Positions 42,307 through 60,921 are shown, counted from the first letter of the stretch. The stretch is 63,783 nucleotides of DNA from an uncultured Pseudobdellovibrionaceae bacterium (GCA_964603655.1 CAZRVZ010000037.1:1-63783), one strand, 5' to 3'. Translations and numbers: made by a program. The notes: a model not told the origin generated them from the letters alone.

Positions 42307-42337
42307 CGGAGGAAAGAATACACTAGAAAACAAAATG

Positions 42338-42587: not shown

Positions 42588-44069
42588 ATGAAAAAGTTAC
42601 TTCGACTCGGTGTTTTGCTGTGGGGGATTAATCTGTGGCAGCCAATTATCGCCAAAAACGCCCTAGCCACCGATTTCACCCCAAAAATCGCAAAGGAAAT
42701 CAGGGCAATCCTACAGCCCCATAAGAATACCGCCCTAGAATTCGGAGTTATGGCCCAATCGCTTGAAAAAGGGGACACCCTGTTTGAGGCCCACGCCGAC
42801 AAACAGCTCATTCCTGCAAGTGTGAACAAGGTTGTTACCGCGTACGCGGCGCTCAAGCGGCTAAAACCAACCGCCACTTTTAAGACTACGGTGTTCGCCA
42901 CCGGGAGCATTCGGGACGGCAATCTGCTGGGTGATATATTCCTGAAAGGTGGCGGCGATCCGAGTCTGGTGTCCGAGCGCATGTGGATGCTCGTCAACGA
43001 CCTGTACCGCTCGGGAATCCGGATCATTTCCGGAAACATTGTGGGGGATTCGTCTTACTTTGATTTCGAACGTAACCCCGATTCGCGCCCCAAATATTTA
43101 AAGGATCAGGCATTTGCCGCACCGATTGGCGCGCTTTCCTTTAACTTCAACACCACCACCATTTATGTAAAAGCCGCGGAGAAACCGGGCGTACCCCCTA
43201 TCGTATTCATCGATCCGGAGAACCCCTATATCGATGTGGTGAATCAGGCTTTAACCGGTAAAGCCGGATCGAATAATTCGTTGGTGGCAATGCGCCTCGA
43301 TTATGTAAAGGGAGTTCTGGGAGATACGGTGCTCCTTAGGGGGTCGCTTCCCCTGGACGCTAAGGAGTCTCGCTTTTACCGTAATATCGTAAACCCGGGG
43401 CTTTACGCCGGGCACATGTTCAAAACTTTTCTTGAGGCACGGGGGATGAAGGTCCAGGGAAATATCATCGAGGGCACCGTTCCCGAAAATGCCAGGCAGC
43501 TGATGGAGTTCGAGTCGCTGCCGCTGTGGCAGGTTATCTGGGGAATGAACAAGTTTTCCAACAACTTTGTGGCCGACCAATTGTTGAAAAAACTGGGAGC
43601 GGATACCTGGGGCGCGCCCGGTACCCTCGCCAAAGGTCTTTCCGCCGTGGAAGAGGCACTGGAAGATATCGGAATAAAAAAGGGTTCCTATGCCATGGCC
43701 GATGGGAGTGGCCTCACCCGCGATTCCCATTTTAGCGCCAGGCAACTCCTGACTGTCCTCAGGGCGGCCCACAAGGACTTTGCAATCTCCCACGAATTCG
43801 TGGCGTCGCTGGCCATTGCCGGCCAGGATGGATCGCTTCGTCGACGATTTTCCAGCGTGAAGGAGACTGATGGAACCTTCTTAAGAGCCAAAACCGGCAG
43901 TCTCGATGGCGTGTCGAGTCTGGCAGGCTACACGGTTTCGGGAGATGGAGAAGACATCGTTTTTGTCGTACTGCTCAACGACAGAAAATTGAGGTACGGA
44001 TCGATGATCGAATGGCGCGATAAAATTGCCAAGGTCTTCCATGAGTATCGCCGGGAAAAGAAGCCGTGA
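42588..44069 (+). CDS. dacB: D-alanyl-D-alanine carboxypeptidase/endopeptidase (PBP4, S13 family)
   Basis: Signal peptide. PASVNKVVT (SxxK), DGSGL (SxN-type) and KTGSL (KTG) motifs. Confidence 0.85.
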   Translation: MKKLLRLGVLLWGINLWQPIIAKNALATDFTPKIAKEIRAILQPHKNTALEFGVMAQSLEKGDTLFEAHADKQLIPASVNKVVTAYAALKRLKPTATFKTTVFATGSIRDGNLLGDIFLKGGGDPSLVSERMWMLVNDLYRSGIRIISGNIVGDSSYFDFERNPDSRPKYLKDQAFAAPIGALSFNFNTTTIYVKAAEKPGVPPIVFIDPENPYIDVVNQALTGKAGSNNSLVAMRLDYVKGVLGDTVLLRGSLPLDAKESRFYRNIVNPGLYAGHMFKTFLEARGMKVQGNIIEGTVPENARQLMEFESLPLWQVIWGMNKFSNNFVADQLLKKLGADTWGAPGTLAKGLSAVEEALEDIGIKKGSYAMADGSGLTRDSHFSARQLLTVLRAAHKDFAISHEFVASLAIAGQDGSLRRRFSSVKETDGTFLRAKTGSLDGVSSLAGYTVSGDGEDIVFVVLLNDRKLRYGSMIEWRDKIAKVFHEYRREKKP

Positions 44070-45241
44070 TCCTAACCGGACTCGATCGATTTTGCGAAAA
44101 GGAGTTCACACGCTTTCAAGGAATGCGCCTGGGACTGCTTTGCAACCAGGCATCGGTTAGTCGCAGCTTATCCCATGCTTCGGATCTGCTCGCGCAAAAA
44201 AAACTTAAACTCGATCTCAAGCTATTCTTCGGCCCCCAGCATGGGATTCGGGGCGAAAAGCAGGATAACATGGTCGAGTCGGATGATTTTATCGACTCAA
44301 GGACCCGCCTTCCGATCGTCAGCCTGTATTCAAAAACTAGAGAGCCAAGGGCGGAGCAACTCAAGCTCATCGATTGCCTCTTGGTGGATCTTCAAGACGT
44401 TGGCTGCCGCATCTACACCTTCATGTACACGATGGCCAATTGTATGCGAATTGCCAAAGCCACCGGGTGCAAAGTGGTCGTGCTCGACAGACCAAACCCT
44501 ATTGGTGGAATTGCCGTGGATGGAAATGTTCTCGAACCGGCATTTGCGTCCTTTGTTGGTCAATACCCCATCGTCACACAGCATGGGATGACGCTTGGGG
44601 AACTGGCAAAACTGTTTAACGGTGTTTTCGGTATCGGCTGCGATCTCGAGGTGATTGGAGTGAATGGGTGGAAGCGCGAGCGCCAGGCAGATACCTGGGA
44701 TCGCGATTGGATTCCGCCGTCACCTAATATCCCCACGCTGGCCGCCGCAAGGCTTTTCCCGGCGACGGTTCTCTTTGAGGGAACAAATATTTCCGAGGGG
44801 CGCGGCACCACGAAACCGTTTGAGTGGATCGGGGCACCCTTTATCGACCCCGATCGACTCAGCGCCCACATGAACCAACACAAACTGAGCGGCGTATTTT
44901 TTCGACCGGTTTACTTTCAGCCGACATATCAAAAACAGAAGGACAGAGTCTGTGGCGGTGTCCAGCTGCACATCACGGACCCTAAAAAGTTCAAGCCAGT
45001 TCGCACCGGCAACGAACTGCTCTATGCCGTTCGCGCGCTTTACGGGGACAAGCTCCAGTGGAAACAACCGCCGTACGAGTACGAGCTAGAAAAACTGCCC
45101 ATCGACCTAATCGCCGGCACCGACCAACTTCGTCTTGCCGTCGATGCGCAGAAAGGACTCCGTGCATTCCACGACCGCGTCAACGCTGACGTGTCTGCGT
45201 TTGGCCGGATGAGAAAGAGGGTATTGAGTGGTGCGGGGTAG
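44066..45241 (+). CDS. namZ: DUF1343 family exo-beta-N-acetylmuramidase (NamZ-like)
   Basis: LLCNQASV.., DLQDVGCRIYTFMYTM and DRPNPIGG motifs typical of DUF1343. Overlaps the dacB stop by 4 nt. Confidence 0.7.
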   Translation: MILTGLDRFCEKEFTRFQGMRLGLLCNQASVSRSLSHASDLLAQKKLKLDLKLFFGPQHGIRGEKQDNMVESDDFIDSRTRLPIVSLYSKTREPRAEQLKLIDCLLVDLQDVGCRIYTFMYTMANCMRIAKATGCKVVVLDRPNPIGGIAVDGNVLEPAFASFVGQYPIVTQHGMTLGELAKLFNGVFGIGCDLEVIGVNGWKRERQADTWDRDWIPPSPNIPTLAAARLFPATVLFEGTNISEGRGTTKPFEWIGAPFIDPDRLSAHMNQHKLSGVFFRPVYFQPTYQKQKDRVCGGVQLHITDPKKFKPVRTGNELLYAVRALYGDKLQWKQPPYEYELEKLPIDLIAGTDQLRLAVDAQKGLRAFHDRVNADVSAFGRMRKRVLSGAG

Positions 45242-47523: not shown

Positions 47524-48648
47524 TTAGGCGAACGCCCCGCAAAGAGTCTCCACAATTCGCCCTCCGGCCTGCCCGTCGCCGAAGGGCTGGCGGGTAACCC
47601 GCATCATCGGGTACCGTGGATTCGAGTCGGTCATGAGTTCGCCCATGACATCGTAAATTCGATCGGCGTCGGTCCCGACCAATACAGCGGCGCCGCAATC
47701 GACCGCCTCCTGCCGTTCCGTCGATTCGCGCAAAACCACGACAGGTTTTCCCAAATAAGGCGCCTCTTCCTGTATGCCGCCGCTGTCGGTAACCACGAAT
47801 CGACAATCCCGAATCAGTGCAATTGATTCCAGATAGCTCACGGGTGGAATGAGGCAAATGTTTTTCGTTTTTGCCAACCACTCTTCGGCCATCCGCCAAA
47901 CGTTGGGGTTTGGGTGCACCGGGTAGACGATTGCCGTTTCGGGATAGGCCTCTGCAAAACGCCTGATGCCCTGAAAGATGGATGCGAGCGGGACACCGAA
48001 ATTTTCACGTCTGTGGGCCGTGAGCAGCACGAAATCCTTATGCTTTTTAAATGTGTCTGGAAGCGTTGGGTTTTGGGTGAGGCCCTCCAATAACGCATCG
48101 ATGCCGGTATTTCCCGTCACAAAAATAGTGCCGTCGGCGTGTCCTTCGCGCAACAGCTCCCTCCTGGCCCCCTCGGTGGGTGCAAAATGAAAATCGACTA
48201 CCGGCGCGACAAGACGACGGTTTATCTCCTCGGGGAAAGGGGAGTGCTTGTTGCGCGTCCTTAGACCAGCCTCTACGTGCGCAACCGGAAATCCTTGATA
48301 AAATGCGGACACAGCGCCTATCAGTGCGGTCGTTGTGTCTCCCTGCACGATGACGACCGAGGGATTGACCTCTTTTAAAACCGGACGAAAGCGCAGCATG
48401 AGTCGGGCAGAGATATCGAAAAGATCCTGGTCCTTCGACATGATGTCCAGATCGATGTCCGGCTTGATTCCAAAAACACCGAGGGTTTGGTTGGAGAGCT
48501 CACGTTGCTGACCAGTATTACAAACAATCACCTCCATTTTTCCGGACTCACCGACTCGCTTGCGATTCGAATCCCGGAAGGCAGAAATGACCGGCGCCAG
48601 CTTGATGGCTTCGGGGCGAGTGCCTAAAATGATGAGCGCCTTTGACAT
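47524..48648 (-). CDS. wecB: UDP-N-acetylglucosamine 2-epimerase (non-hydrolysing)
   Basis: ILGTRPEAIKLAPV start, VQGDTTT, HVEAGLRT and DSGGIQEEAP motifs. Confidence 0.9.
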   Translation of the reverse strand: MSKALIILGTRPEAIKLAPVISAFRDSNRKRVGESGKMEVIVCNTGQQRELSNQTLGVFGIKPDIDLDIMSKDQDLFDISARLMLRFRPVLKEVNPSVVIVQGDTTTALIGAVSAFYQGFPVAHVEAGLRTRNKHSPFPEEINRRLVAPVVDFHFAPTEGARRELLREGHADGTIFVTGNTGIDALLEGLTQNPTLPDTFKKHKDFVLLTAHRRENFGVPLASIFQGIRRFAEAYPETAIVYPVHPNPNVWRMAEEWLAKTKNICLIPPVSYLESIALIRDCRFVVTDSGGIQEEAPYLGKPVVVLRESTERQEAVDCGAAVLVGTDADRIYDVMGELMTDSNPRYPMMRVTRQPFGDGQAGGRIVETLCGAFA

Positions 48649-48676
48649 TCCAGTATTCGAAGGTCTGTTCGAAATG

Positions 48677-49933
48677 CTAATTAAAATACCGACGGATAAC
48701 CGTTTCGGTCTCCTGTTTGCCTATCGGGCTAAAGCCCTTATCCGAACTGCCATGCAGTCCCGGAGAGACCGAAGCATCCCAGAAGACTATGCCGCGAAAC
48801 CAGTCCCAACCGGGCTCCCAAAAAGCCCTGAACATTGCCTCGTAGGCCGCCGCCTGGTGAGAGATATTCAGAGTTCCTGGCCCCGCGTAAGTAAAGGGAT
48901 CGATAAAACCTTTTTCCACGCTCCGAAATCCCACCTCTTTGAACCAAATGGGGACCTGTTTTCCAATGACCGATTCAATTTGAACGACCGTATTATCGAT
49001 TTGGGACGCGTAACGCTCGGCAGTTTGGGTGAGAACTGAAACCAGCTCGGAATAATCGTTAGGAATCTGCTGCTCTTTCGTCGCAAGGGAGCGGTAGATG
49101 TCGACACCGATTCCGTCCAGTCCCGACCAGAAGCCGACCAGATCCTTCCAAATCAGATTTTCCGCCTCGTTCTGGGGGTGGGCCAAATCAACCAAACGAT
49201 AACGCCAACGCGCCAACTCACCGCCGAATTCCGCCAGACTTCCTGTTTGAATTTTATCATCGGTAAAATTGACGTCATACATCAGTTTGGTATTCGGTAA
49301 CTGACCCCTTACATAATTCAGAATCGACAGCCACCGCCCGGGAAATCCGTGCGGGTGCGCCAGCCATTGATCCTCGATACCTACAGTCATAGAATACAGC
49401 TCGGCCGCCAGGGTGAACTCGTCCGCCCGACCTAATTTCGCTATCAACAGGTATATATCCAGATAAGTTTTGAAAGACTCAAACCACGCATTCGGATCAG
49501 CCGGCTGGATGTTGCCATGCCACCATATCTTTTTGTCACCATTGGGCAGAACCTCGATATACGGCGTGTTTCCCTGAGCATCCACCACCAGGAAAATGGG
49601 GCGAATCCCTACCTTCATTCCCTTAGCATGCAGGTAATTCATGAAGCGTTGATAGCGCTTGCGCTCCTGCGGCCTATCGCCTGGCGGCGTCATGGGCGAA
49701 AGTTCGACACCTCGAGGATTTCGCATCACCGCTCGGGGGATCAGATTGATCTGGCGCACTCCAAGAGCAAAAAGCTCATCGACGCGATTTTGAGCCACTG
49801 TCTGTTCCCCGCTTTCCGCCGCATCGTATTTGAAATTACCGATTTCGGTCAGATTGAATCCCCGAACATATTCAGAATTACCGAACACCAATGAAGATAT
49901 ACCAATGGTGAATAACCCCAAGATGATATGCAT
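48677..49933 (-). CDS. secreted TIM-barrel glycoside-hydrolase-like protein
   Basis: Signal peptide. Candidate acid/base (FTLAAELYS) and nucleophile (IWFKEVGFRS) glutamates spaced as in clan GH-A enzymes. The family is not identified. Confidence 0.45.
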   Translation of the reverse strand: MHIILGLFTIGISSLVFGNSEYVRGFNLTEIGNFKYDAAESGEQTVAQNRVDELFALGVRQINLIPRAVMRNPRGVELSPMTPPGDRPQERKRYQRFMNYLHAKGMKVGIRPIFLVVDAQGNTPYIEVLPNGDKKIWWHGNIQPADPNAWFESFKTYLDIYLLIAKLGRADEFTLAAELYSMTVGIEDQWLAHPHGFPGRWLSILNYVRGQLPNTKLMYDVNFTDDKIQTGSLAEFGGELARWRYRLVDLAHPQNEAENLIWKDLVGFWSGLDGIGVDIYRSLATKEQQIPNDYSELVSVLTQTAERYASQIDNTVVQIESVIGKQVPIWFKEVGFRSVEKGFIDPFTYAGPGTLNISHQAAAYEAMFRAFWEPGWDWFRGIVFWDASVSPGLHGSSDKGFSPIGKQETETVIRRYFN

Positions 49934-49978
49934 GCAATGCTCCCTAAGATCCCTAAAGGAACTAACTACCTTTAGGGA

Positions 49979-52141
49979 TTAATCCGCGACCTTTACCAGT
50001 TCGAGGGGAAACCGAATACCGCTTCCCCCCATGATAAACACTCCTTTAAAAAACATTCCTTGTGCGGTGAACTGACCCCTGACGTGGTGCGAACGAAAAT
50101 CCGTTTCAGTTTCACCGGATGTAAAAAAAACGGCAGCCTCGGGTCGTTCCCAATACCCCTCGGCCAATCCAACCGATTGTTCATTGAAGCGAAACTGGGC
50201 GCGCAGAGATTCCTCGAGGTGAGTGACCGAGAGCTCGACGATCTTGCCACCGACCGTACCGCGGTAATTACCCGTAAGACTATCGGGTGAAATGGCCAGG
50301 CCATATTGAGCCTGATATTGGGCGGTTTGGGTCCCCGTGACCGAGTGGTACGCAGCCCCGTCGAAAAACCGTCCCAAAATCTTGTAAGATTCTTGGGATT
50401 TCGTGAGCTGAAAGGTCAAATAATGGTTGGAGCTACTTTTAACAAGATGGGAATACTCCTTATTATAATGAACCGCCTCGAAGGTGTTCGTCTCGGGTGA
50501 CTGGGTAACATGGAAGAACGTGAAGTCCCGTCGCTCCGATCGTCCATTGAACGATAGCACTGCAAAGAGGGTCCCATAATCTCGGAGGGTCAGGGTCAGC
50601 GTTGCGGGGGACCCGTCGATGAACACACCATAGGTCCCCTCAATTCCCGTATTTAGCACCCGCATCATCACCAGCCGTCGCCGAAAGCGCGCCATTTGAT
50701 CCATTGGTTCCGTCAACTGCAGGAGCTTGAACTCGGCAAGTAACTTATCAACGAAGATTAAGAGCATTGGGTACTGACGATCCGGAACGCGCTGAAATCG
50801 GTAAGCGCTCTCGACCGCCTCGGAAAATTCGACTCTTATGAGCAGGGTCAACGATGCTAGAAACCGTGAAATCCAGACTTCATCCAATACGCCTCCAAGG
50901 GAAAGCAATCGCGCCACCACCTCGGTGTTCGTTCTTCCGATACCCTTAGCGATCTCATCGCTTCCAACCAGGGCAGGAGATTTTCTCAACTTCTCAACGG
51001 CGAGTATCAACCAATGGGTGGGGCCTACCAGTCCCTCCGCGGTCGAAGACTTAAGCGATCGCTCCGCCGCATAATCCGAAAGCCGCTGGAAGGCGCCACC
51101 CGATTCGAGCCTCGGTACCCATTCGGAAATTTCGGAATCCGACAGCGAGAATGTCAACGATAGCAGACGCCCCACCAGGTTCGACTCCAAGGATTCAAAC
51201 TCGTCCAACACATAGGGGAGAACCAGCATCACTCGCAATAATGCGATGGCTTTACCCACGGACCGGTGTAACTCCAACGCGCGCACACGATCGGTCAACG
51301 TTACGGCTAGTTTTCCGTGCAATGTCGCCAGCCGAGCCCGGCTATCGTCATCCGCCCATCGCAAAAATGCATCGATTATCGCAAAATCATCGCGGTCCAG
51401 CTGAATAAATTTAACCGCATTTCGGGTGACCACTCGGGCAAAACGGGCCAAGGCATCCATTGCAAGCGATCCGGGTGCGCCGGGCAAGGCCGCCTTCAGC
51501 GCGTCGAGAATTCGCAAATAGGGAATGAGTTTCGGCCCGTCGGAGAGATTCGTCACGACAGGTTCTGCATCCGATAATGCGCGAATAAACGCCGCCGGAT
51601 CCTGTTTAGCTAATTCCAGTAATCGATCGGGTGATGGCAATGCGGGCTCAATTGAACCACCTCCGGGCTCACCGCCGGGTTCACCCCCTGTCTCTACTGT
51701 CGTTGAAAACACATACCCCTTTTCGGGCACGTCTTTGAAACTGCAAGCGGGCCGCGGATTTACCATCCGGCACACACACAGAACGATTCCATAAGGACCG
51801 TATGTTCCTTCGGAAACAATAGTCTGTACCGGTTTAATCTCACCGGTCTCAACGTTAAGCGCCATAATACTATTGGGGTCGTTCGGGGCGGACTCGGAAG
51901 ACCAGACGAACGGTGGCAATTCAAATTTATCAAAATCCTTGACGATAGTGGCCAGGGCCGGCCGATGACTTCTCAACTCCTGAATCGTGGGAAACTGGTA
52001 ACGGTAGGTAGACGATCCCAAGCAGTGCATTTTTGCAATCCGGTAAACCGACTCGGTTGTGATGGGCAGCGACCAGTATGTCTGGGTGGGCGCCGCCAGT
52101 GAAATCCCAGTCACGAATGTCAAAAGCAGAAGATGTTTCAT
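49979..52141 (-). CDS. large secreted protein of unknown function (720 aa)
   Basis: Trimmed to MKHLLLLTFVTGISLAAP. Cys-containing N-domain with PTIQELRS (DUF1566-like), then a GGEPGGEPGGG linker, a helical Leu-rich middle and a beta-rich C-domain. Confidence 0.6.
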   Translation of the reverse strand: MKHLLLLTFVTGISLAAPTQTYWSLPITTESVYRIAKMHCLGSSTYRYQFPTIQELRSHRPALATIVKDFDKFELPPFVWSSESAPNDPNSIMALNVETGEIKPVQTIVSEGTYGPYGIVLCVCRMVNPRPACSFKDVPEKGYVFSTTVETGGEPGGEPGGGSIEPALPSPDRLLELAKQDPAAFIRALSDAEPVVTNLSDGPKLIPYLRILDALKAALPGAPGSLAMDALARFARVVTRNAVKFIQLDRDDFAIIDAFLRWADDDSRARLATLHGKLAVTLTDRVRALELHRSVGKAIALLRVMLVLPYVLDEFESLESNLVGRLLSLTFSLSDSEISEWVPRLESGGAFQRLSDYAAERSLKSSTAEGLVGPTHWLILAVEKLRKSPALVGSDEIAKGIGRTNTEVVARLLSLGGVLDEVWISRFLASLTLLIRVEFSEAVESAYRFQRVPDRQYPMLLIFVDKLLAEFKLLQLTEPMDQMARFRRRLVMMRVLNTGIEGTYGVFIDGSPATLTLTLRDYGTLFAVLSFNGRSERRDFTFFHVTQSPETNTFEAVHYNKEYSHLVKSSSNHYLTFQLTKSQESYKILGRFFDGAAYHSVTGTQTAQYQAQYGLAISPDSLTGNYRGTVGGKIVELSVTHLEESLRAQFRFNEQSVGLAEGYWERPEAAVFFTSGETETDFRSHHVRGQFTAQGMFFKGVFIMGGSGIRFPLELVKVAD

Positions 52142-52163
52142 CGCCCCCCAAAAAAAAGCACTA

Positions 52164-53909
52164 TCAGTCAATTTCAATCGGATCCGGTCGATTCGGTACC
52201 TGCGATTGATTCTCGATCCAACTTTTCAAATCAACAAATTGATATCCGTTCGTTTTCGCCCCTCGAATTAAACGCCGGATCGGTTCAACATCTCCGGTAA
52301 ATTTACCCGCACCCGCCTCGCTAGTCTCCTCTAAAAGAAATGGGTGGATGAAAAACGATCCCCAGACATCTCGTAATTTGCGGTTACGCCGCATCATGCG
52401 CACCATGTCAGGCACAGTTTGTGCCTTGAATACCTGCTCGTTCATGAAGGGTTGCAGATTTCCAATATTTTCGGGAATGATCCTCTGCCCAAATACATCG
52501 CCGAAAATTTCATAGGGAAAAAACTGCCCGTTCGGTCGGTCTTCGTGAGTGGTGACGCGGAGGTCAGATAAGAATTTTAACTGATCCGAAATTGACGCCA
52601 CAGATCCCAACCTCATCGAGGACGGCAATCGCTTCTTTTGGGCAGCGTGGAAGGGGAAGTAGATGACTCGTCCAGCCGACCACTCAAAAAGCTGTCCAAA
52701 TAGAATCGAGTCGAGCGCCGATGCCTGGTAGTGTGGCGTCACCCAACCAATCGGTTGGATGCCCGCGCGATCGACCAGTCCCCAACCTTCACTTAATCGA
52801 CGAGTCACATATTCCGGCGAGTCTTCACCTATCGGCCTATTGCGAACCCGGTCCCAAAACTCGAAATCATCACCGGTGATCGCGCTAAACGGGTTCGGCG
52901 TCTCGCCGTATTGGTGAGTGACCCCGTGGAGAAAAAACGATGCCCCCGACTCTTTGGCCCGATGGAGCGCGCTCAAGAAGAGCGGCGCCTGAGTCAGCGG
53001 AACGAATGTTTCCAGCGGATCGGACGTCGTGATTTTCAGCGGATCGCGAAATACCGGGACCAGGGTCGCGCTAAAGGGGATCCCCTCACTTTTAAACAGA
53101 TCGACCATTCGGTGAATCTGCCACGGCGGCACGCGCGGGTGGAGATCCTCGAGTCGGAAAAGAGCCACTTTCTTTTCATGGCGGGGCTTTTCACCCAAAA
53201 TATCAAAAAGGAGATCGGCCATAATAAGGTAGCGATCCGATTCCGTCGCAAAGCTGAACGGACTCTCCGCCACCAACCACCGATTACCCTTCCGTAATAC
53301 ATAGGGCGTGGATATGTTTTGAGTGGAATGACTGGCCATCGCAATTGCTTCCACCTGTGGGCCCAGCGGTTCGTAGAGAGCAATTTCATAGGCGGCGTTG
53401 AGTTTTTTGGGGTCGGCACTATCCCAGCCGGCATATTTTTCAAACCGTTCACCGAGATAATCGTAAAACCGAAAAAACCCGGGAAAACCTTCGGGGTCCT
53501 TTTTCTCATCAAGGATTGATAACCCCAGGAAGCGCACTCCAAAACTCTTCTCCAAAACATCGGACTCCAACTGCCACGCGTTGTAACCCATCCAAACTAG
53601 GGTTCGAGTGGTGGCCTCGAGATCGGAGCGAAAACTCACCGGCAAGGGATTGTCATAATAGGTGCCCAGGTAAAAATTTACCTTACAAAGATCGAAATCG
53701 CCTTTTTGATATTTTTCAATGGGTGCCACTCGCTGCTGGTACTTCGGAAAATGACCCAACAGGTTTTGTAAGAGCGTCGCATGTACTCGGCCAAATGTGT
53801 AACGGGGAACAACCTGTTCGACCCGATCATAAAAGATCTGAATGCACTCGGTTGCCATCGAAGCCGAGGTCGCGCACACGACCAAAAATACCGGAAGCCA
53901 TCGGATCAT
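52164..53909 (-). CDS. DUF2334-like polysaccharide deacetylase-fold protein with an extra N-terminal domain
   Basis: FRLEDLHP..., LHGVTHQYGE...DFEFW and WVTPHYQAS resemble DUF2334 (divergent CE4-like) motifs. Signal peptide. Overlaps the GT2 stop by 4 nt. Confidence 0.55.
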   Translation of the reverse strand: MIRWLPVFLVVCATSASMATECIQIFYDRVEQVVPRYTFGRVHATLLQNLLGHFPKYQQRVAPIEKYQKGDFDLCKVNFYLGTYYDNPLPVSFRSDLEATTRTLVWMGYNAWQLESDVLEKSFGVRFLGLSILDEKKDPEGFPGFFRFYDYLGERFEKYAGWDSADPKKLNAAYEIALYEPLGPQVEAIAMASHSTQNISTPYVLRKGNRWLVAESPFSFATESDRYLIMADLLFDILGEKPRHEKKVALFRLEDLHPRVPPWQIHRMVDLFKSEGIPFSATLVPVFRDPLKITTSDPLETFVPLTQAPLFLSALHRAKESGASFFLHGVTHQYGETPNPFSAITGDDFEFWDRVRNRPIGEDSPEYVTRRLSEGWGLVDRAGIQPIGWVTPHYQASALDSILFGQLFEWSAGRVIYFPFHAAQKKRLPSSMRLGSVASISDQLKFLSDLRVTTHEDRPNGQFFPYEIFGDVFGQRIIPENIGNLQPFMNEQVFKAQTVPDMVRMMRRNRKLRDVWGSFFIHPFLLEETSEAGAGKFTGDVEPIRRLIRGAKTNGYQFVDLKSWIENQSQVPNRPDPIEID

Positions 53910-55246
53910 TTTGACACCCCACTGAAAGACGCCCCATTAAATGATGTCCCGCTGAAAACCGCCTCACCGAAATGGCTGGGCAGTTCGTGGTCCGTTTTGA
54001 TCCACCGAATCGTCGATTGAAAGTACCGCGCCCGCAGATCGGTCACAATCGCGGCTATGGACGCAAAGGCATTGATAAAAACACCCACCGGCCACCGGGG
54101 AAATACGCCCAATGCCGCCGCAATCCCGTATACACGACGGGTAGCCACCCACCGCTGTCCCAGGCGATTGAGCATTAACCCGGCATTCACCCACCACAGC
54201 CACCGAACCGCCGTGTCCGTGAAATCCGGGCCATTTGAAATCCAAATCCACGGCAGGGCAAACATCCCAAACATTCCGACGATATTAGAAAATACCACAC
54301 GCCGGTCTCGCCACAAAAAGTAGCGATCGACCCATTTTCCATACCAGCCCAAATTTCGCCCCCCCTGAATGGCGATACCCAGCGTCCAGCGCGTTTTTTG
54401 TCGAACACTTTGCCAGAAGAAATTGGGGAAATATTCGCGAGTCGCAATCCATTCATTCTCGACACGAAAGGTTCCCAGAATCGATCGGGCTCCCAACCGA
54501 AATGCATGGTGGCCCAATTCATAGTCTTCGGTGAGGGACCTTTCGTTCAATAAAGTTCCTTGTTTCGCGATGATTTTCATCCACAGTTCTCGCGAAATGG
54601 CCGTCCCAACTCCCGCAGAAGGCACGGCGGCGCCGAGATAACCGCGAACAACGAGATCCTTGGTGTGGCTCTCCGCGAACTCATCCATATAGGTTCCCCC
54701 AACCCACTGCCACGAGGTTCGCGGCAGCGAAAAGACGGGAATCTGAACGAAATCGTGATCTCGCCAAAGTTGACGGATAAGATCGAAGGCTTGCGGATGG
54801 ACTACGTCCTCAGAATCATGAAGAACAATTCCGGAAAAATCCTGCCCCTGTTCCTTTTCCCAATTCAAAAGCTCGCTCACCACGAAGTTCAGAATCTGCC
54901 CCTTACTGGTAGGTCCACCAGTACTATTAGAAACGAGATGCACATTGGGATGAGTTCTCGCGACCTCTGAAACTTCGCGTTGGGTTGCGGGGTCGTTCGG
55001 ATACGTGCCGACAAAAAAATGAATTGTCGAATCTGGCACCCGCGCGAGATTACCCGCCAGCATTCTGCCGATCACTCCTGCTTCGCGCCACGCCGGAATC
55101 ACGACCGCAATCGGCCCCCCCACAGGAACGGCCACGAGATCGGCCGATCTGGAAAAGTGTCGCGCTCGCGAGCGACACCGCCGCCAGTAGACCCAATCGA
55201 TCCAAAGGTCGTCAACCCCCAGCACCAAGTACACGAATCCCAACAC
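53906..55246 (-). CDS. NfrB-type family-2 glycosyltransferase (exopolysaccharide synthase), short form
   Basis: Long colinear motif series recalled from E. coli NfrB: GVDDLWIDWVYW, FVGTYPNDPATQREV, GPTSKGQILN, LHDSEDVVHP, YMDEFAESHTKD, PSAGVGT, SLTEDYELG, REYFP, VRQKTRW, YFLWRDR, W-KTDHELPS. The protein ends right after the last motif. Confidence 0.75.
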   Translation of the reverse strand: MLGFVYLVLGVDDLWIDWVYWRRCRSRARHFSRSADLVAVPVGGPIAVVIPAWREAGVIGRMLAGNLARVPDSTIHFFVGTYPNDPATQREVSEVARTHPNVHLVSNSTGGPTSKGQILNFVVSELLNWEKEQGQDFSGIVLHDSEDVVHPQAFDLIRQLWRDHDFVQIPVFSLPRTSWQWVGGTYMDEFAESHTKDLVVRGYLGAAVPSAGVGTAISRELWMKIIAKQGTLLNERSLTEDYELGHHAFRLGARSILGTFRVENEWIATREYFPNFFWQSVRQKTRWTLGIAIQGGRNLGWYGKWVDRYFLWRDRRVVFSNIVGMFGMFALPWIWISNGPDFTDTAVRWLWWVNAGLMLNRLGQRWVATRRVYGIAAALGVFPRWPVGVFINAFASIAAIVTDLRARYFQSTIRWIKTDHELPSHFGEAVFSGTSFNGASFSGVSK

Positions 55247-55281
55247 GATCAGTACAGGCGAAAGCCAATCGCTGAATACGT

Positions 55282-56022
55282 TCAGGCTCCACCCCCCACG
55301 ATGAGCATCAGGCGAACGCCTTCCGATCGGTGACTATCCGGATTCAGGAATGAATTACGAACATAGGCCAGAAGTAGAGAAAGCGAAATATCGGGTTCAC
55401 TGACCTGAAACCGAGCGCCCACTTTCAAATCGACGCGATTATTGAAGAGAACACCCGATCTGTCGATGCATCCGAACGGCTCCAGATAAAGGCTGAGAGC
55501 ATGGCGTGTATCCAGTTGCGCGCGAAGGCTCAACCTCCAAAATGCGGCAGCCATGAGATTATTCTGGTCGAGCGAGGAATAGACCGTTTCGCCGTACAGC
55601 TCGGAATCACCCAAAAGCCCGAAAGACAGAGGGCTCGAATCGAATCGACTCCCGATCATGAGAAATCTCGCATCGCCTAACCAGCCGCTCGTCGCATTTA
55701 GAGGTCTGACCGCGCGCCACTGACCTTGAAGTTCGATGCCACCGAAAACCCACCGAGCGCCTGGCGCGCCATAGAGGCGAGAAAAACCGGTCTCGCCTTG
55801 CTGAATCGCGGAAAAAAAATCGGCCCCCACCTGCAAAAACGGAGAAAGCCGTCCAAATGAAGACGAGCGCGAGAACACCCGCACCCTCGATTGACTGGAG
55901 CTCGACGAGATCCAGCCCTGCATGACATTTTCGCTGTACCAGTCCAATGACAGGGCCGACGGGCTGGGGGTGGCGCGTAGTACGTAAACACTGGCCAAAA
56001 GAATAAAAAGTCGAGCACCCAT
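55282..56022 (-). CDS. small outer-membrane beta-barrel protein, first gene of the EPS cluster
   Basis: Trimmed to the ATG at 56022 (MGARLFILLASVYVL signal). Alternating beta pattern throughout. Confidence 0.55.
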   Translation of the reverse strand: MGARLFILLASVYVLRATPSPSALSLDWYSENVMQGWISSSSSQSRVRVFSRSSSFGRLSPFLQVGADFFSAIQQGETGFSRLYGAPGARWVFGGIELQGQWRAVRPLNATSGWLGDARFLMIGSRFDSSPLSFGLLGDSELYGETVYSSLDQNNLMAAAFWRLSLRAQLDTRHALSLYLEPFGCIDRSGVLFNNRVDLKVGARFQVSEPDISLSLLLAYVRNSFLNPDSHRSEGVRLMLIVGGGA

Positions 56023-56278
56023 AAACACCAAAGTAATGATTATTCCTGGTGATGCTCACTTAGGAAAGGCGCTTGATTTATGCTGCGAGTCGATGCCTTA
56101 CCATCCGAGGCTTCAACGTCAGGCGGTCTGCACGGCGTACTCTGTGAGCGAATCAGATGTTGAGGCGTGGAACGGGTACGTGAAAGATCTGGGTGAACTG
56201 ACTCTCTTATCGGAAATCGTTCAGGCATTGGTGGCGGATCCGAAGAGGTGTCAGTAATTTCCGCACTAGGGAAATCTC

Positions 56279-56968
56279 TTAAAACCGCGCAACCATCCAG
56301 GCCGAGCCGATTCCCGGAATGATGTTCCAACTGCCCCCTGTGCCAAAGTGACCTGAGCCCAGCGACATCTGCGCCCGCTCTTCTGGTGAATCCTGAAGCA
56401 AACGATAGACGCCGGCTCCAATCATTATGATTCCCGGAAACAATAGGTATCGACTACCGCTATAAGAACCGGTGCCGAAAAAATAAAGCAGAGACGTGCC
56501 CGAAAGTAGGTGGGACGCCATTCTCATGATGCGGCCGGTGTAGGCCTCATCGGCTAGCACCCGCAGACGGGTCCTGCCAAACTCTTCCCGTGAGACCACT
56601 CCGCCGAAATCTTTTGCCGTGCCAGGCGCGTAGCGTTGGTAACGTTGTGCCACCACCTCGATTCCCGAAAGACCTTGGAGTAGCCTAATTCCGTCAAAAA
56701 AAGTAACCCAGCCGGTGAAAGAAAGTCCGAAACCCATCATCGCTCCCAACCCAGCGGGAGCCGACGTCAGTTGAATGATTCCCCAGACACCGTTGTAAAG
56801 ACCGGAAGCCACCGAAAATGCCCCCCAATAATCCCGGTAACGCGGATAACTGGAATCGATAATGGCATAAGCATCGTCGATTCTACCGGGATCGGTGTAG
56901 TCAGCGGCTTTGGCGACGGTTCCAATCCACAGTAATCCAAAACAAACTATGATTCTTACGGGTATCAC
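56279..56968 (-). CDS. hypothetical secreted or membrane protein
   Basis: Signal peptide (IVCFGLLWIGTVAKA), Gly-rich hydrophobic stretches, C-terminal ..AWMVARF. Overlaps the upstream ATP-grasp stop by 4 nt. Confidence 0.55.
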   Translation of the reverse strand: MIPVRIIVCFGLLWIGTVAKAADYTDPGRIDDAYAIIDSSYPRYRDYWGAFSVASGLYNGVWGIIQLTSAPAGLGAMMGFGLSFTGWVTFFDGIRLLQGLSGIEVVAQRYQRYAPGTAKDFGGVVSREEFGRTRLRVLADEAYTGRIMRMASHLLSGTSLLYFFGTGSYSGSRYLLFPGIIMIGAGVYRLLQDSPEERAQMSLGSGHFGTGGSWNIIPGIGSAWMVARF

Positions 56969-57936
56969 GTTTGCCCCTGTCGCCTGACTCTGAGTGCCTC
57001 AATCTGCCTCATGAGCTCAATCTGCCCCTCTATTTTCATCACGGCATTGACCTGTATCAACGCCGAGGGGCAGGTGAAGTTTATTTCGCTAATCCGTTCT
57101 CCGATAAAGTCCAATCCCAGAAAATAGAGACCTCTTTCGGATAAATTTTTGGAGATCTCGAGCGCGGCGCGGCGCTGATTCTCGGTCAGATTCCAGGGAT
57201 GTGCCGTGGCTCCCTGGTGCAGACTTCCAACCCGGCTGCCTTTCCCGGGCTTTCGCAGTACGTGTCCTAAAATATTTCCGTCGAATGAAAGCACCCGCAG
57301 ATCTCCGATAGTCTCCATTTCTCGCGCATAATCCTGGAGCACGATACTCCCCGCCCCGCCCCACTGCGCCCAATAGCGCTCCAAGAGGGACCGGTCCGAT
57401 TGCTGAGAAAAGAATTCGATCCCCTGGGCGCAGTAGGTATTCTTGGGTTTGGCGACCAAATCACACTGAGACCGCTTCACGCCGTCAATGAGTTCATCCA
57501 AACTGTGCACTATCCGAGTCGGAATAGAATATTGCGCGAACTCCATCGGGATCTCGTGCTCGCTGATCCGCCAGATTACAGCCGGGTCATTAATCTGCAA
57601 TACAGAACTGGGCGAGCTCATGAAGGCTCTGCAATGGCCGACAAACTCCTCGTCGACCGGTGGATCTTGCCGGTGCAAAATGACGCCGTACTCTTCCACG
57701 GATGCGGTTCGCCAGGGTCCGAGTCGAAATGGGGGGCTATCGTGTCTAAAAACCTCGATGATTTCGGCGACCCTGAGCCGTTGCAAATAATCCGGGTGTT
57801 TCCAGTCCATCTGGGAGAGGTCGAGATAATCGGTGGGAATTTTACAACGCAAAAGCTCAAATGCCATGAGGATGCTGGTATCGGTCGCGGGCAGAAACGT
57901 CGAAAGCGGATCGGCCGCCAAAAGGTAGCGAGTCAT
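56965..57936 (-). CDS. glutathione synthetase-like ATP-grasp protein
   Basis: Colinear with prokaryotic GshB: HRQDPPVDEEF, DLRVLSFDGNILGHVLRKP..GSLHQGATAHP, GLYFLGLDFIGERISEINFTCP. Confidence 0.65.
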   Translation of the reverse strand: MTRYLLAADPLSTFLPATDTSILMAFELLRCKIPTDYLDLSQMDWKHPDYLQRLRVAEIIEVFRHDSPPFRLGPWRTASVEEYGVILHRQDPPVDEEFVGHCRAFMSSPSSVLQINDPAVIWRISEHEIPMEFAQYSIPTRIVHSLDELIDGVKRSQCDLVAKPKNTYCAQGIEFFSQQSDRSLLERYWAQWGGAGSIVLQDYAREMETIGDLRVLSFDGNILGHVLRKPGKGSRVGSLHQGATAHPWNLTENQRRAALEISKNLSERGLYFLGLDFIGERISEINFTCPSALIQVNAVMKIEGQIELMRQIEALRVRRQGQT

Positions 57937-57978: not shown

Positions 57979-59223
57979 TTACAAAACTCCCTTGAGCGTT
58001 TCGGATGTAAAGTAGGCAAGCGGGTTGACGGCCTTGCCGTTCTCCCGGATCTCGAAATAAAGGCTCGCCCGCTCGACATTTCCGGTGTCACCGACATACC
58101 CGATCGTTTCGCCCTGAACCACGGCGTCCCCCTTCTCCTTCGTCGCCTTGAATAGATGCCCACACAGGGAATAAAGACCCCCGCCATGATTGAGAATCAG
58201 CACATTGCCCAAACCCTTGAGCCACCCCGAAAACTCCACCCAACCACCGAACACCGCCCCTACCGGAGCATTGTGCTCCGCGCCGATTTCAATTCCTTTG
58301 TGAAAGACGACGGTTCCGAATTGAGCGTGAACATCTTTTCCGAAGCCTCGAATTATTTTGCCCGTCGCTACCGGTAGCGGAAGCGACTGTTTCTTCGGGC
58401 GTTGGCTCGTTCCAGTGGTGGTTCGTCCGCTGGGGCTTCCGGTGGAGTTACCCGCGGTCCGTGCCGAATCAAAGCCTGAAAATAACTGGGCGAGCTCCGA
58501 TGACAGACGCCGGTATTCCCTAACGGCGCGTTCATAGGCTGACTGTTTTTCAAGAATATGGGAAATCATCTGGCGCTTGCGCTGGAGATACCCACCGAGC
58601 AACTGCTCCTGTTCCGCCAGCTCACGGAGCACCTTCTCGAGCTCCGAATGCACCGTTGCGATTCGGTCCTGACTCGACTTCAGCCGCCCGGCCCGTTCAT
58701 CCAGTTTTTGGGTCAATTCCGCGTGCGAGCGAAACGTACGGTAGAGAATGCGAATTCGACCGGCTAAATGAGCAAGATTTTCACCGCGCGCCACAAACCT
58801 CAAGAATCCATCTTTTTTTACTTTATAAAGAAAACGGGCAAGCCCGACCAGTCGGTTTTTTTCGATTCTCTGGGCGTCCTGTTGTTTCTGGAATTCCATG
58901 CTCAGGTTATCATAAGCCATCGCCAGCTCACGGTGGTTCAGGCGGATTTCGGAAATCCGCTCGCGAACGCGATTCTGATCGGAATTGATGGAGTCCAACT
59001 CCTCGATCAGACTGCGACGGGAAGCCTCTCTTAATTCATATTGAGGCTTTTCCTGCTGAAGGATCTCTTTGAGTTCGCTGACACTTGCGCTGATACTTGC
59101 GCTGGCACCAGCACGTGCGTTTATGCGATCGGATTCAGGGGACGGCTCTATGGCACCCCAGCCTTGGGCACTCGCAATCGAGATAAAAATGATGAACAAG
59201 GCGACGACCACCTTTTCAATCAC
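57979..59223 (-). CDS. envC: EnvC-like murein hydrolase activator (coiled coil plus degenerate M23/LytM domain)
   Basis: Long coiled coil then a LytM domain with degenerate metal ligands (HKGIE instead of HxxxD). Immediately downstream of ftsEX. Confidence 0.75.
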   Translation of the reverse strand: MIEKVVVALFIIFISIASAQGWGAIEPSPESDRINARAGASASISASVSELKEILQQEKPQYELREASRRSLIEELDSINSDQNRVRERISEIRLNHRELAMAYDNLSMEFQKQQDAQRIEKNRLVGLARFLYKVKKDGFLRFVARGENLAHLAGRIRILYRTFRSHAELTQKLDERAGRLKSSQDRIATVHSELEKVLRELAEQEQLLGGYLQRKRQMISHILEKQSAYERAVREYRRLSSELAQLFSGFDSARTAGNSTGSPSGRTTTGTSQRPKKQSLPLPVATGKIIRGFGKDVHAQFGTVVFHKGIEIGAEHNAPVGAVFGGWVEFSGWLKGLGNVLILNHGGGLYSLCGHLFKATKEKGDAVVQGETIGYVGDTGNVERASLYFEIRENGKAVNPLAYFTSETLKGVL

Positions 59224-60113
59224 TTTAACGGTCCCTCGCGAAACCGCAGAAAGACCCCGATACTTCCCAGAAACGCCATGCAGATACCCAAAGTCACAAA
59301 ACCCACCAATTGACCCGGCGAAAGAAACAGCCAGTCCTTAAAACCCAGGGCATTTGCCCAATTACGCGCCCCCCACGCGGTGACTCCGCTGCGCAAAAAC
59401 AGAAGCACGATCAAGGCGGAAACGGTACCGAGAACTCCCTCAATCAGCCCCTCCCAAAGGAAAGGGCTCATCACAAACTTCTGGCTCCCGCCAATCAGGC
59501 GCACGATATCAATCTCCGCCTTTCTATGTTGGTGTCGCATTCCCATGAAGTTGGCGATCAGAAACGCACACCCGCACACGATGCCTGCCACCAGAATGAT
59601 TCCAATGGAACGCAAGAGTCCCCGAATATTCTTGTATTGGAGCAGCCAATCCTCGGAAAAATCCGCCTCCGCAACTTCGGAAAACTGTGCGAGAGTCGCC
59701 TTCACCACCGATACGGCCGTCGACGGTGCATCTTTGCGCATCTCCAATTCGAGAATATCGGGAAACAGTTCTCCGGCCGGGATTGCGGCTCCCTCGGGAG
59801 CCCCGAGAAACAACGACAGCTCTTGCAGAACTGTATCCTTGGCCTTAAAGGTAACTCGCTGTACCGCTTCCAGCGAAAGGATGCGATCCTTGAGAGACTG
59901 GATCTGTCCGGCCGATAAATTTTCCCTGAGATACAGCGTTCCCGTCGTATTCGGATTCGTAGATTCCGCCAATCGTTCGAAATTCCGATAGCAGATCAGA
60001 AACACACCCAGGATCACCATGGCGACCGTGATGGTCGAAGTACTTACCAGGTGGAGCCAAGGGTGCCGTCTGAAATCGAGACCAATTCGCCTCAGACCGC
60101 GTAAGCTCGACAT
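59220..60113 (-). CDS. ftsX: cell division permease FtsX
   Basis: Four-TM FtsX topology with a periplasmic loop after TM1. Follows ftsE. Confidence 0.85.
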   Translation of the reverse strand: MSSLRGLRRIGLDFRRHPWLHLVSTSTITVAMVILGVFLICYRNFERLAESTNPNTTGTLYLRENLSAGQIQSLKDRILSLEAVQRVTFKAKDTVLQELSLFLGAPEGAAIPAGELFPDILELEMRKDAPSTAVSVVKATLAQFSEVAEADFSEDWLLQYKNIRGLLRSIGIILVAGIVCGCAFLIANFMGMRHQHRKAEIDIVRLIGGSQKFVMSPFLWEGLIEGVLGTVSALIVLLFLRSGVTAWGARNWANALGFKDWLFLSPGQLVGFVTLGICMAFLGSIGVFLRFREGPLK

Positions 60114-60116
60114 AAT

Positions 60117-60803
60117 TTAGCTCCACCCCAATTGCCGGTCGGCGATCATCACGCCGTGCTCGAGCTCGATCACGCGCGAGGGAAACTCGTCCATCAGATT
60201 CTCATCGTGAGTGGCGATGAACACCGTCGTTCCCATCGAATGAATCTCCTTAAACAATGACATGATTTCGCGTGCGGTTCGGTTATCGAGATTTCCCGTC
60301 GGTTCATCCCCTAAGAGTAATGCCGGTTTTCCAACGATGGACCGAGCGATGGCGATTCTCTGTTGCTCACCGCCCGATAGCGTCAGCGGGAAATCACCCC
60401 GACGATCCTCGAGCCCAACCAACGAAAGCACCCCCAACACCCGGTGGTCCACCTCGGACCGTGTCATCTTGCGAATCTCGAGCGGGAGAGCGACATTCTC
60501 GTACACGCTGAGATCCGGGAGCAGCTTAAAGTCCTGAAAAACGAACCCCACCTCGCGCCGATACTGCGGAATGCGCGACTTCGGAATTTCGCTAATATCT
60601 CGGCTATTGACGACGATGGAACCGCTCGACGCGCGCTCCATCGCGAAGAGAAGTTTCAAGAGAGTAGTCTTTCCGGCACCATTAGTACCGGTCACGTAGG
60701 CGAACTCGCCGCGATCCAGATCAAAGCTCACATCGCGCAGAGCGCTGCGTGTTTCCGAATACTGCTTACCGACGCGATGAAGCCGTACCATTTTCGCGGA
60801 CAT
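60117..60803 (-). CDS. ftsE: cell division ATP-binding protein FtsE
   Basis: Walker A GTNGAGKTT, signature LSGGEQQR and Walker B LLLGDEP. ORF trimmed to MSAKMVRLH. Confidence 0.9.
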   Translation of the reverse strand: MSAKMVRLHRVGKQYSETRSALRDVSFDLDRGEFAYVTGTNGAGKTTLLKLLFAMERASSGSIVVNSRDISEIPKSRIPQYRREVGFVFQDFKLLPDLSVYENVALPLEIRKMTRSEVDHRVLGVLSLVGLEDRRGDFPLTLSGGEQQRIAIARSIVGKPALLLGDEPTGNLDNRTAREIMSLFKEIHSMGTTVFIATHDENLMDEFPSRVIELEHGVMIADRQLGWS

Positions 60804-60921
60804 AGGCCCCCAAACCCTTGCCAACAACTTCAGGTGGTTTTTTAGTATCTCAACGAAACAAGTGCCAGGCCATTCTACCATAATGGCACAAACTTGGACG
60901 CGTAATGTCCCGACATTCTTT

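Follow-up and report, generated by a model that had tools for sequence, protein, structure and literature searches.

A 63,783-nucleotide stretch of DNA from an uncultured Pseudobdellovibrionaceae bacterium (GCA_964603655.1 CAZRVZ010000037.1:1-63783; this whole stretch is called the window below) contains, on its minus strand at 47524-56031, six head-to-tail open reading frames (ORFs) that probably form a conserved Bdellovibrionota-type variant of the Nfr system, the synthase-dependent exopolysaccharide system built on an NfrB-type synthase. Most likely, this six-gene operon makes, trims and exports a surface polymer containing N-acetylmannosamine (ManNAc), and the cluster is most likely an undescribed variant of Nfr, not a wholly new type of machine. 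In Escherichia coli, NfrB, NfrA and YbcH act together with WecB to produce the 'NGR' glycan, the receptor of phage N4, and it was not until 2021 that Nfr was identified as machinery for an exopolysaccharide (PMC8669469, PMC8669472). The six genes, from P249 to wecB, and the region 5′ of them are as follows.

55282-56031 (TTG start) or 55282-56022 (ATG start), minus strand: P249, a small secreted beta-rich protein
53906-55246, minus strand: GT2, a short NfrB-type family-2 glycosyltransferase
52164-53909, minus strand: DUF2334 protein, 581 aa, PF10096
49979-52141, minus strand: P732, 720 aa from the ATG; the ORF extends to a TTG at 52177
48677-49933, minus strand: GH113-like protein, PF22612, secreted and glycoside hydrolase (GH)-like
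47524-48648, minus strand: WecB, TIGR00236, non-hydrolysing UDP-GlcNAc 2-epimerase
56032-56278, 247 nt, minus strand: intergenic region 5′ of P249, probable 5′ boundary of the operon and promoter region

The synthase is the part that ties the cluster to Nfr. It matches PF13641 and PF13632 in Pfam and, in NCBIfam, only models of the NfrB/PRK14716 type, scoring 390 bits against the top model NF011305 (under its cutoff of 409) and 328 bits against the NfrB model NF008411, of which it covers positions 18-474 of 723 only. By BLASTP, it is 36% identical to residues 22-484 of E. coli K-12 NfrB (E 3e-84), and its C-terminus corresponds to NfrB residue ~484. More than 4600 homologues were found at E<=1e-20, and in an alignment of 27 homologues the DxD-type residues D144/E146/D147, the TED motif (T239-E240-D241) and the QxxRW motif (Q283..R286-W287) are invariant. 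Sequence searches of the PDB with GT2, both as a single sequence and as a profile, returned nothing significant, and its relation to PgaC is weak (hhalign 21.7%, in a range given as 0.2-22%, with a single-sequence template of limited sensitivity). The earlier note, made from the DNA sequence before this analysis, had placed the synthase in the NfrB type, and that is where it falls; these comparisons do not group it with any non-NfrB synthase family. We classify GT2 as a short NfrB-type inner-membrane processive synthase.

What the window synthase lacks is MshEN, the C-terminal domain by which cyclic di-GMP (c-di-GMP) activates E. coli NfrB. PF05157 gave no match on GT2, whereas the E. coli NfrB control was matched at 542-628, and the domain is missing from all Bdellovibrionota-type GT2 homologues examined; about 7% of NfrB homologues have been reported to be without it (PMC8669469). 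GT2 is therefore not expected to be gated by c-di-GMP in the manner of E. coli NfrB, and any c-di-GMP control must act differently. The public gene call for GT2 (P0001, 385 aa) begins at an internal Met and omits the N-terminal 61 residues. This call is too short: the alignment with homologues begins at residue 1, encoded by the GTG at 55246, and the omitted part includes the invariant D13.

The layout of the genes agrees with the earlier description of six minus-strand genes separated by overlaps or by gaps under 50 nt, and all six ORFs lie where they had been placed. From P249 to WecB, the junctions are a 35-nt gap, a 4-nt overlap, a 22-nt gap, a 45-nt gap and a 28-nt gap, and the 247-nt region upstream of P249 is the only gap longer than 50 nt in the gene run. 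A sigma-70 promoter scan of this region found no convincing match, so its promoter role is only presumed. The gene 3′ of wecB is in convergent orientation, and base composition is flat over the cluster region. P249, the DUF2334 protein, P732 and the GH113-like protein have signal-type hydrophobic N-termini, WecB has none, and GT2 has internal hydrophobic membrane segments; the compartments predicted for the six proteins are compatible with a trans-envelope machine.

The arrangement recurs in other genomes. We fetched 80 genome loci from the GT2 alignment (numbered with an L below) and searched their ORFs with the window proteins, E. coli NfrA and YbcH, and the C-terminus of NfrB. The trio of P249, GT2 and DUF2334 genes is present in at least 10 loci from Bdellovibrionota/Oligoflexia, in which GT2 has about 465 aa, P249 lies 0-54 nt upstream of it and DUF2334 follows at -3 to +7 nt. 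In loci of this type, a P732 homologue comes after DUF2334 in 6 cases, a GH113-like gene is present in 8 and about 10 have wecB at a distance of up to ~3.5 kb, these three genes being attached in varying order, and neither NfrA nor YbcH was found in them among the 80 loci. All six genes occur in L015, and four or five of the six in L007, L008, L011, L021, L023 and L024, the last of which is the cultured Bdellovibrio sp. HCB-110, with five (NZ_CP178750.1, roughly 1,748,500-1,755,500). Three of the loci, L024, L016 and L017, come from the complete genomes of Bdellovibrio strains in culture; the named strains are HCB-110, HCB290 and HCB209. The nearest homologues of the cluster proteins come from metagenome-assembled genomes of Bdellovibrionota/Oligoflexia, at only ~45-50% identity.

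The canonical type, found in Gamma-, Beta- and many Alphaproteobacteria, is organised differently. Here, GT2 usually has ~700 aa, often with a detectable MshEN, and overlaps by 4 nt a gene encoding tetratricopeptide repeats (TPRs) and NfrA_C, with a YbcH-like gene 2-3 kb downstream and wecB ~2.3 kb upstream. There are also hybrids: L033 combines a GT2-MshEN, a BcsB-like protein, a TPR protein, DUF2334 and WecB, and L041 (Omnitrophota) has WecB, GT2, NfrA-like, YbcH-like and DUF2334 genes. YbcH-like genes were found in some of the related loci (L013, L032, L041 and L093). Given that DUF2334 also occurs in these other Nfr-type clusters (L033 and L041), the gene set of the window is one arrangement within a modular family.

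An independent anchor led to the same neighbourhood. Among contigs encoding exact P732-homologue proteins, L091 and L093 were informative and three others were too short. The order in L091 is that of the window, with GT2 (cut by the contig end), DUF2334, P732, GH113 and WecB, and in L093 the genes for P732, GH113, WecB and a YbcH-like DUF4434 protein follow an ORF that contains both GT2 and DUF2334. The conservation that the earlier note had proposed checking thus holds for loci anchored on GT2 and on P732 alike. It is hardly credible, then, that the six genes merely happen to lie side by side without forming one functional system. Gene order does vary among genomes, as chance adjacency would allow, but the six families co-occur in many genomes from either anchor, the spacing is tight, with two genes overlapping by 4 nt, and synteny already contradicts the idea: with this gene set found again in so many genomes, coincidence falls far short of explaining the adjacency.

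The protein encoded directly downstream of the synthase, predicted to be periplasmic, matches PF10096 above threshold at residues 249-539 (E 4e-38), in line with its earlier description as DUF2334-like. It starts with a signal or anchor sequence, and a conserved N-terminal domain of ~245 aa, with no assigned fold, precedes the part that resembles carbohydrate esterase family 4 (CE4). Across 17 full-length homologues with 29-50% identity to the window protein, R252, E254, D255, H328, G329, T331, H332, Q333, H393, Y394 and H522 are invariant, as are residues of the N-terminal domain such as D28, N49, H53, Y67 and others. The RxED, HxxxH and xxH pattern resembles the motifs of CE4 deacetylases, and HGvTHQ (against HSYTHQ) and the C-terminal GYxFV align with 7ax7, a PDB chain of the CE4 type, although not significantly (E 0.15). 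As this is the sole PDB alignment that shows the motifs, the protein is only a putative deacetylase. The start of its gene overlaps the GT2 stop by 4 nt, and the GT2-DUF2334 junction stays within -3 to +7 nt in at least 12 loci; DUF2334 is probably translationally coupled to the synthase and probably forms a complex with it. Among the related loci, L001 (10726-14875) has two tandem full-length DUF2334 paralogues after GT2, with genes for a response-regulator-PilZ protein and a GH5 enzyme nearby, and L003 has two receiver-domain genes immediately after DUF2334.

P732 had been described as an orphan, and it is not one: it belongs to a rare family. It has no match in Pfam or NCBIfam, and word-indexed homology searches with the single sequence and with a seven-sequence profile returned the query only. 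The family came to light with phmmer, run exhaustively over 1.84 billion representatives, as 57 clusters at E<=1e-3. A typical member has ~590 aa and matches residues 165-718. The extra N-terminal alpha/beta domain of the window protein (~18-150) and its GGEPGGEPGGG linker are absent in the other family members, and its N-terminal ~150 aa match separate proteins of 140-290 aa, in two of which an Lcl_C (C-type-lectin-like) domain is joined to it. An AlphaFold2 (AF2) model from a 35-sequence alignment, with a predicted local distance difference test score (pLDDT) of 86 and a predicted template modelling score of 0.71, shows this alpha/beta domain (18-150), a Gly/Glu/Pro linker, a 16-helix alpha-solenoid (170-496) and two beta domains of ~8 strands each (502-608 and 624-719). 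A P732 homologue adjoins DUF2334 in 8/8 informative loci: it follows DUF2334 in L008, L011, L015, L021, L023, L024 and L091, and the GT2::DUF2334 ORF in L093. The fold class, the signal peptide and the synteny suggest that P732 may be a stand-alone periplasmic scaffold. We also considered P732 as a detached TPR region of NfrA or PgaA and rejected this; there is no profile similarity, only a generic alpha-solenoid likeness, and the hhalign value against PgaA is 0.1% (single-sequence template).

The GH113-like protein matches PF22612 with E 1e-15 and 58 bits (cutoff 27), and its nearest solved relatives in a phmmer search of the PDB are the GH113 endo-beta-1,4-mannanases 4cd6 and 3civ (E 2e-7). 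In the alignment with 4cd6, its E178 and E333 stand opposite the catalytic residues E151 and E231, and neither varies among 9 family members. The two residues are 155 positions apart, against 80 in the mannanase, so the GH113-like protein must contain large insertions. Homologues occur in 8 related genome loci and in L091 and L093. These features make it a candidate retaining, polymer-trimming enzyme of the clan GH-A type. The alternative that it is a divergent YbcH was rejected (hhalign family against family, 0.3%); YbcH itself found no solved relative in a PDB sequence search. Against PgaB, hhalign gave 0.4% with a single-sequence template.

WecB scores 413 bits against the equivalog model TIGR00236 (cutoff 210) and matches PF02350 with E 5e-105, and we assign it at equivalog level as a UDP-GlcNAc 2-epimerase, the predicted supplier of UDP-ManNAc. 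Its presence inside the cluster, pointed out by the earlier note, is real; it is confirmatory and not new, because linkage of wecB and nfrB in other genomes was already published in 2021 (PMC8669469). Most of the related loci, of the Bdellovibrionota and canonical types alike, have a wecB homologue no farther than ~3.5 kb from GT2, and the linkage to an NfrB-type GT2 extends over Bdellovibrionota, Alpha-, Beta- and Gammaproteobacteria, Omnitrophota and others. ManNAc is the suggested substrate because phage N4 infection of E. coli needs the catalytic activity of WecB, with the rest of the enterobacterial common antigen pathway dispensable (PMC8669469, PMC8669472), and because of this known linkage.

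P249 has no match in Pfam or NCBIfam, and its sequence is beta-rich behind an N-terminal hydrophobic signal sequence. In an alignment of 13 family members from the related loci, all have the signal sequence and a strand-like alternation, and most end in GGxF/I/L, as do many outer-membrane proteins. The family profile is similar to the C-terminal ~300 residues of NfrA: hhalign gave 79% (E 1.6e-5, 160 columns) with all NfrA-like sequences and 56% (E 1.2e-4, 152 columns) with the C-terminus of 32 strict NfrA proteins, and reversed or column-shuffled controls stayed at <=0.5%. A 539-aa protein in L086 likewise fits the P249 hidden Markov model (HMM) in its C-terminal part. Strict NfrA homologues range from ~450 to 1150 aa. 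P249 is probably a TPR-less minimal barrel of the NfrA type, remotely related to the C-terminal barrel of NfrA.

From the families, motifs, compartments and conserved linkage described above, we infer the substrate, the product, the deacetylation, the scaffold role and the export route as follows. WecB would convert UDP-GlcNAc to UDP-ManNAc in the cytoplasm, and the short NfrB-like GT2 would polymerise a ManNAc-containing chain and thread it into the periplasm, E. coli genetics and the wecB linkage pointing to this substrate and product. The DUF2334 protein, probably bound to the synthase, would modify the nascent chain, with de-N-acetylation the likeliest modification given the invariant CE4-like Asp/His set, and the GH113-like retaining hydrolase would trim or release the polymer. 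The kinship of this hydrolase with beta-1,4-mannanases hints at a beta-1,4-linked, manno-configured backbone, comparable to that of the Listeria Pss polymer. P732, to judge by its fold and synteny, may be a free periplasmic scaffold that replaces the TPR arm of porins such as NfrA, PgaA and BcsC, and P249, as a minimal NfrA-like barrel, would pass the polymer through the outer membrane.

Several points weigh against this scheme, beginning with its basis, since the six genes of the variant are interpreted from sequence, synteny and models. For P732, Foldseek found no specific structural relative in the PDB: the beta part gave weak hits to DUF3598 (2o62) and BF2706 (3rwx) at E ~1e-3 and the helical part to generic TPR/ARM solenoids at E ~0.02-0.05. 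The match of the GH113-like protein to PF22612 spans model positions 173-289 only, the C-terminal ~40% of the model, and its N-terminal half has no significant match. The remaining points fall on P249, on the DUF2334 protein and on the polymer itself, and each of them is shared by a different explanation of that part.

For P249, there is no TPR and no match to Pfam NfrA_C (PF13283), the homology with NfrA is only moderate (56% in the strict set), the mature protein of ~225 residues is small for a 16-strand polysaccharide porin, and the window copy ends in GGGA (55282-55290), without a terminal aromatic residue, whereas in nearly all family members the last residue is aromatic or hydrophobic. 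A single-sequence AF2 model (pLDDT 35) is unusable. These are the features one would expect if the glycan were retained in the periplasm or envelope, as a cyst, sheath or other envelope component, and P249 were an unrelated small outer-membrane protein. We think this very unlikely: a P249-family gene lies 0-54 nt immediately upstream of GT2 in 12 Bdellovibrionota loci, a small signal-peptide protein occupies its position in L008 and L011 despite the failure of the HMM to match, and a larger relative, the 420-aa protein of L032, joins N-terminal TPRs to a C-terminal part matched by the P249 HMM, which is the standard architecture of such porins. The small outer-membrane beta-barrel of the earlier note accordingly stands as plausible and unproven; the signal peptide, the beta-rich sequence, the GGxF-type terminus of the family and the NfrA profile similarity speak for it, and the model does not help.

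The deacetylase role of the DUF2334 protein meets difficulties of its own. Searches of the PDB with the single sequence and with a profile gave nothing significant and no solved CE4 structure, and the comparison with PgaB gave an hhalign value of 2%, with a single-sequence template of limited sensitivity. We take DUF2334 to belong to the same Pfam clan as CE4, and it is on this presumed kinship and on the motifs that the role rests. Full-length homologues also occur without an NfrB-type GT2 on Ralstonia and Burkholderia replicons, so the family is not exclusive to Nfr-type clusters. The protein might instead be a partner that the synthase requires, without catalysis or as a co-polymerase, and that holds or guides the chain on the periplasmic side, like BcsB or PgaD. 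The lack of significant similarity to solved deacetylases, the large and strongly conserved N-terminal domain and the near-invariant junction with GT2 would suit such a partner. So would the 1064-aa ORF of L093 (L093:3-3197, ENA ERZ27247320 k141_2594851), which is cut by the contig start and contains GT2 and a complete DUF2334, with the apparent fusion point at the DUF2334 signal-anchor segment; on this single metagenomic contig, the two genes could be truly fused, or the usual 4-nt overlap could have been misassembled by 1 nt. We consider the partner role unlikely, though it deserves some weight: the invariance of E254, D255, H328, H332, H393 and H522 in 17 sequences is hard to explain without catalysis, and in L033 the DUF2334 and BcsB-like proteins are present together, so that a simple replacement of BcsB does not fit. 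The two roles are not mutually exclusive.

In a plasmid collection, DUF2334 retrieved only short CE4-like matches from Bacillus and, from Ralstonia and Burkholderia, stand-alone full-length homologues. One is on a Ralstonia solanacearum megaplasmid (L087; CP023017.1 1571231-1572976) and another on a Burkholderia vietnamiensis plasmid, with diguanylate cyclase genes on its flanks (L088), both with ~32% identity over ~95% of the length of the 581-aa protein. A stand-alone homologue was found in 136 Ralstonia replicons.

As to the polymer, the product of NfrB is chemically undefined even in E. coli (PMC8669472). It could be GlcNAc-based, resembling poly-N-acetylglucosamine (PNAG), or mixed, with WecB serving some other purpose or supplying a minor or priming sugar. 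The combination of deacetylase, hydrolase and porin follows the logic of the Pga system, which would suit a GlcNAc polymer, and in L001, L003 and L005 the GH113-like gene is missing and a GH5 ('Cellulase') gene is near the synthase instead. Set against this are the linkage of wecB to an NfrB-type GT2 across the groups named above, the requirement for WecB catalysis in E. coli (PMC8669472), the weak relation of GT2 to PgaC and the fact that the nearest solved relatives of the hydrolase are beta-mannanases and not GH153- or dispersin-type enzymes. A product of this kind is, in our view, decidedly improbable, and a ManNAc-containing polymer is preferred.

If all the individual proposals held jointly, the product would be a novel, partially de-N-acetylated, cationic beta-1,4 poly-ManNAc/ManN adhesin, made by a synthase that is not c-di-GMP-gated and exported through a TPR-less NfrA-type porin of ~225 residues, the smallest synthase-dependent one known, with P732 representing a new class of free chaperone or scaffold (an alpha-solenoid with tandem lipocalin-like domains). 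That every part of this combination is right we regard as doubtful.

Compared with E. coli Nfr, the window cluster has a homologous GT2 with identical DxD/TED/QxxRW motifs, 36% identity extending over the whole synthase and membrane part, a link to WecB, an outer-membrane component that is probably related to the NfrA barrel, a periplasmic accessory protein with a glycosidase-like role and the same synthase-dependent logic. It differs in the missing MshEN, in a barrel without TPRs (250 aa, against 990 aa for NfrA), in having no YbcH/DUF4434 homologue, in the additional CE4-like DUF2334 and solenoid/beta P732 proteins and in having wecB inside the operon. The earlier view that the synthase works with non-canonical partners is supported, with a refinement: the conserved Asp/His and Glu residues fit a deacetylase plus glycosidase logic, and the set is less foreign than it had seemed, P249 being probably NfrA-like. 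Additions to Nfr clusters that have been published are the wecB linkage, diguanylate cyclase, acetyltransferase and BcsB-like genes (PMC8669469, PMC8669472). The searchable literature on Nfr clusters describes no DUF2334, GH113-like or P732-type protein and no TPR-less barrel, and in it we found no account of this gene set, in agreement with the earlier note, which knew of none. DUF2334 is named there in just two papers, both on unrelated subjects, and none connects Bdellovibrio with this protein family.

The PgaABCD system for PNAG shares the general logic of a GT2 synthase, periplasmic de-N-acetylation and glycoside hydrolysis, and export by an outer-membrane barrel. No homology was detected for the deacetylase, the hydrolase or the porin (P249 against PgaA, hhalign 0.2%, single-sequence template). 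Pga combines deacetylase and hydrolase in a single protein, PgaB, and carries its TPRs on the porin PgaA, whereas the window has no PgaD and its likely substrate is UDP-ManNAc and not UDP-GlcNAc. In the alginate system, the TPR-like scaffold AlgK and the barrel AlgE are separate polypeptides. If P732 is a scaffold, the two systems would be alike in having a helical-repeat scaffold apart from the barrel, a comparison drawn from general knowledge; P732 differs in lacking a lipobox Cys, in its two extra beta domains and in showing no sequence or fold match to AlgK, and the polymer and synthase families are unrelated.

The PssA-E/PssZ system of Listeria monocytogenes and YdaJKLMN of Bacillus subtilis are also synthase-dependent, with a dedicated glycoside hydrolase. 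YdaL of B. subtilis is presumably a DUF2334 protein of similar size. The Listeria Pss synthase makes a product with a beta-1,4-ManNAc backbone (PMC13492145), and the synthases PssC and YdaM are IcaA-like (PMC4125290). Unlike the window cluster, these Gram-positive systems have a BcsB-like subunit and a degenerate-GGDEF c-di-GMP receptor and no outer-membrane component; Pfam found neither a BcsB nor a GGDEF domain in the six window proteins. By its sequences, the cluster is neither a Pga nor a Pss/Yda system. The GH113 mannanases (Alicyclobacillus ManA, 3civ/4cd6) share with the window hydrolase a C-terminal half matching above the Pfam threshold and both aligned catalytic Glu residues; apart from the partial coverage of the model and the large insertions, the difference lies in the context, which in the window is biosynthetic and periplasmic and not catabolic.

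Directly upstream of the cluster, at 56279-57936 on the minus strand, a gene for a GshB-like ATP-grasp protein and one for a 229-aa membrane protein overlap by 4 nt. Glutathione synthase models score the former well under their cutoffs, and the latter has no family match. Both were ruled out as members of the operon, with no homologues in any related locus. Further upstream on the same strand are an FtsE-FtsX-M23 peptidase (EnvC-like) cell-division operon (57979-60881) and, past a tRNA-Cys gene, an 802-aa protein with Ig-like and LamG/pentraxin domains (61091-63499). On the plus strand, at 42588-45241, a D-Ala-D-Ala carboxypeptidase gene (peptidase S13) is followed, with a 4-nt overlap, by that for the exo-beta-N-acetylmuramidase NamZ, by appearance a peptidoglycan turnover pair. 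A response-regulator diguanylate cyclase (Response_reg and GGDEF; 41299-42333, minus strand) lies ~5 kb downstream of wecB, and the genes in between encode the peptidase S13, NamZ, a CopG-like antitoxin and a 283-aa ORF. This cyclase could matter for the regulation of a synthase without its own c-di-GMP domain; it is non-adjacent, with unrelated genes between. The same genome segment is contained in the Logan assembly of run ERR4904393.

Since synthase-dependent systems are modular, a variant of this kind is not surprising in principle, and it provides useful context, and with it a testable role, for two families to which no function has been assigned, DUF2334 in its 580-aa form and the rare P732. 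The operon wecB, the beta-mannanase-like hydrolase and the deacetylase-like partner are built-in clues to Nfr chemistry, and the stripped-down parts, a synthase without a c-di-GMP domain and a barrel without TPRs, could ease reconstitution and structural work. Genetic work may be practicable, given that named Bdellovibrio strains with complete genomes carry the system. The polymer may play a part in how predatory bacteria adhere or form biofilms and, if it is indeed a cationic ManNAc/ManN polymer, could mediate attachment to prey or to surfaces in predatory Bdellovibrionota.

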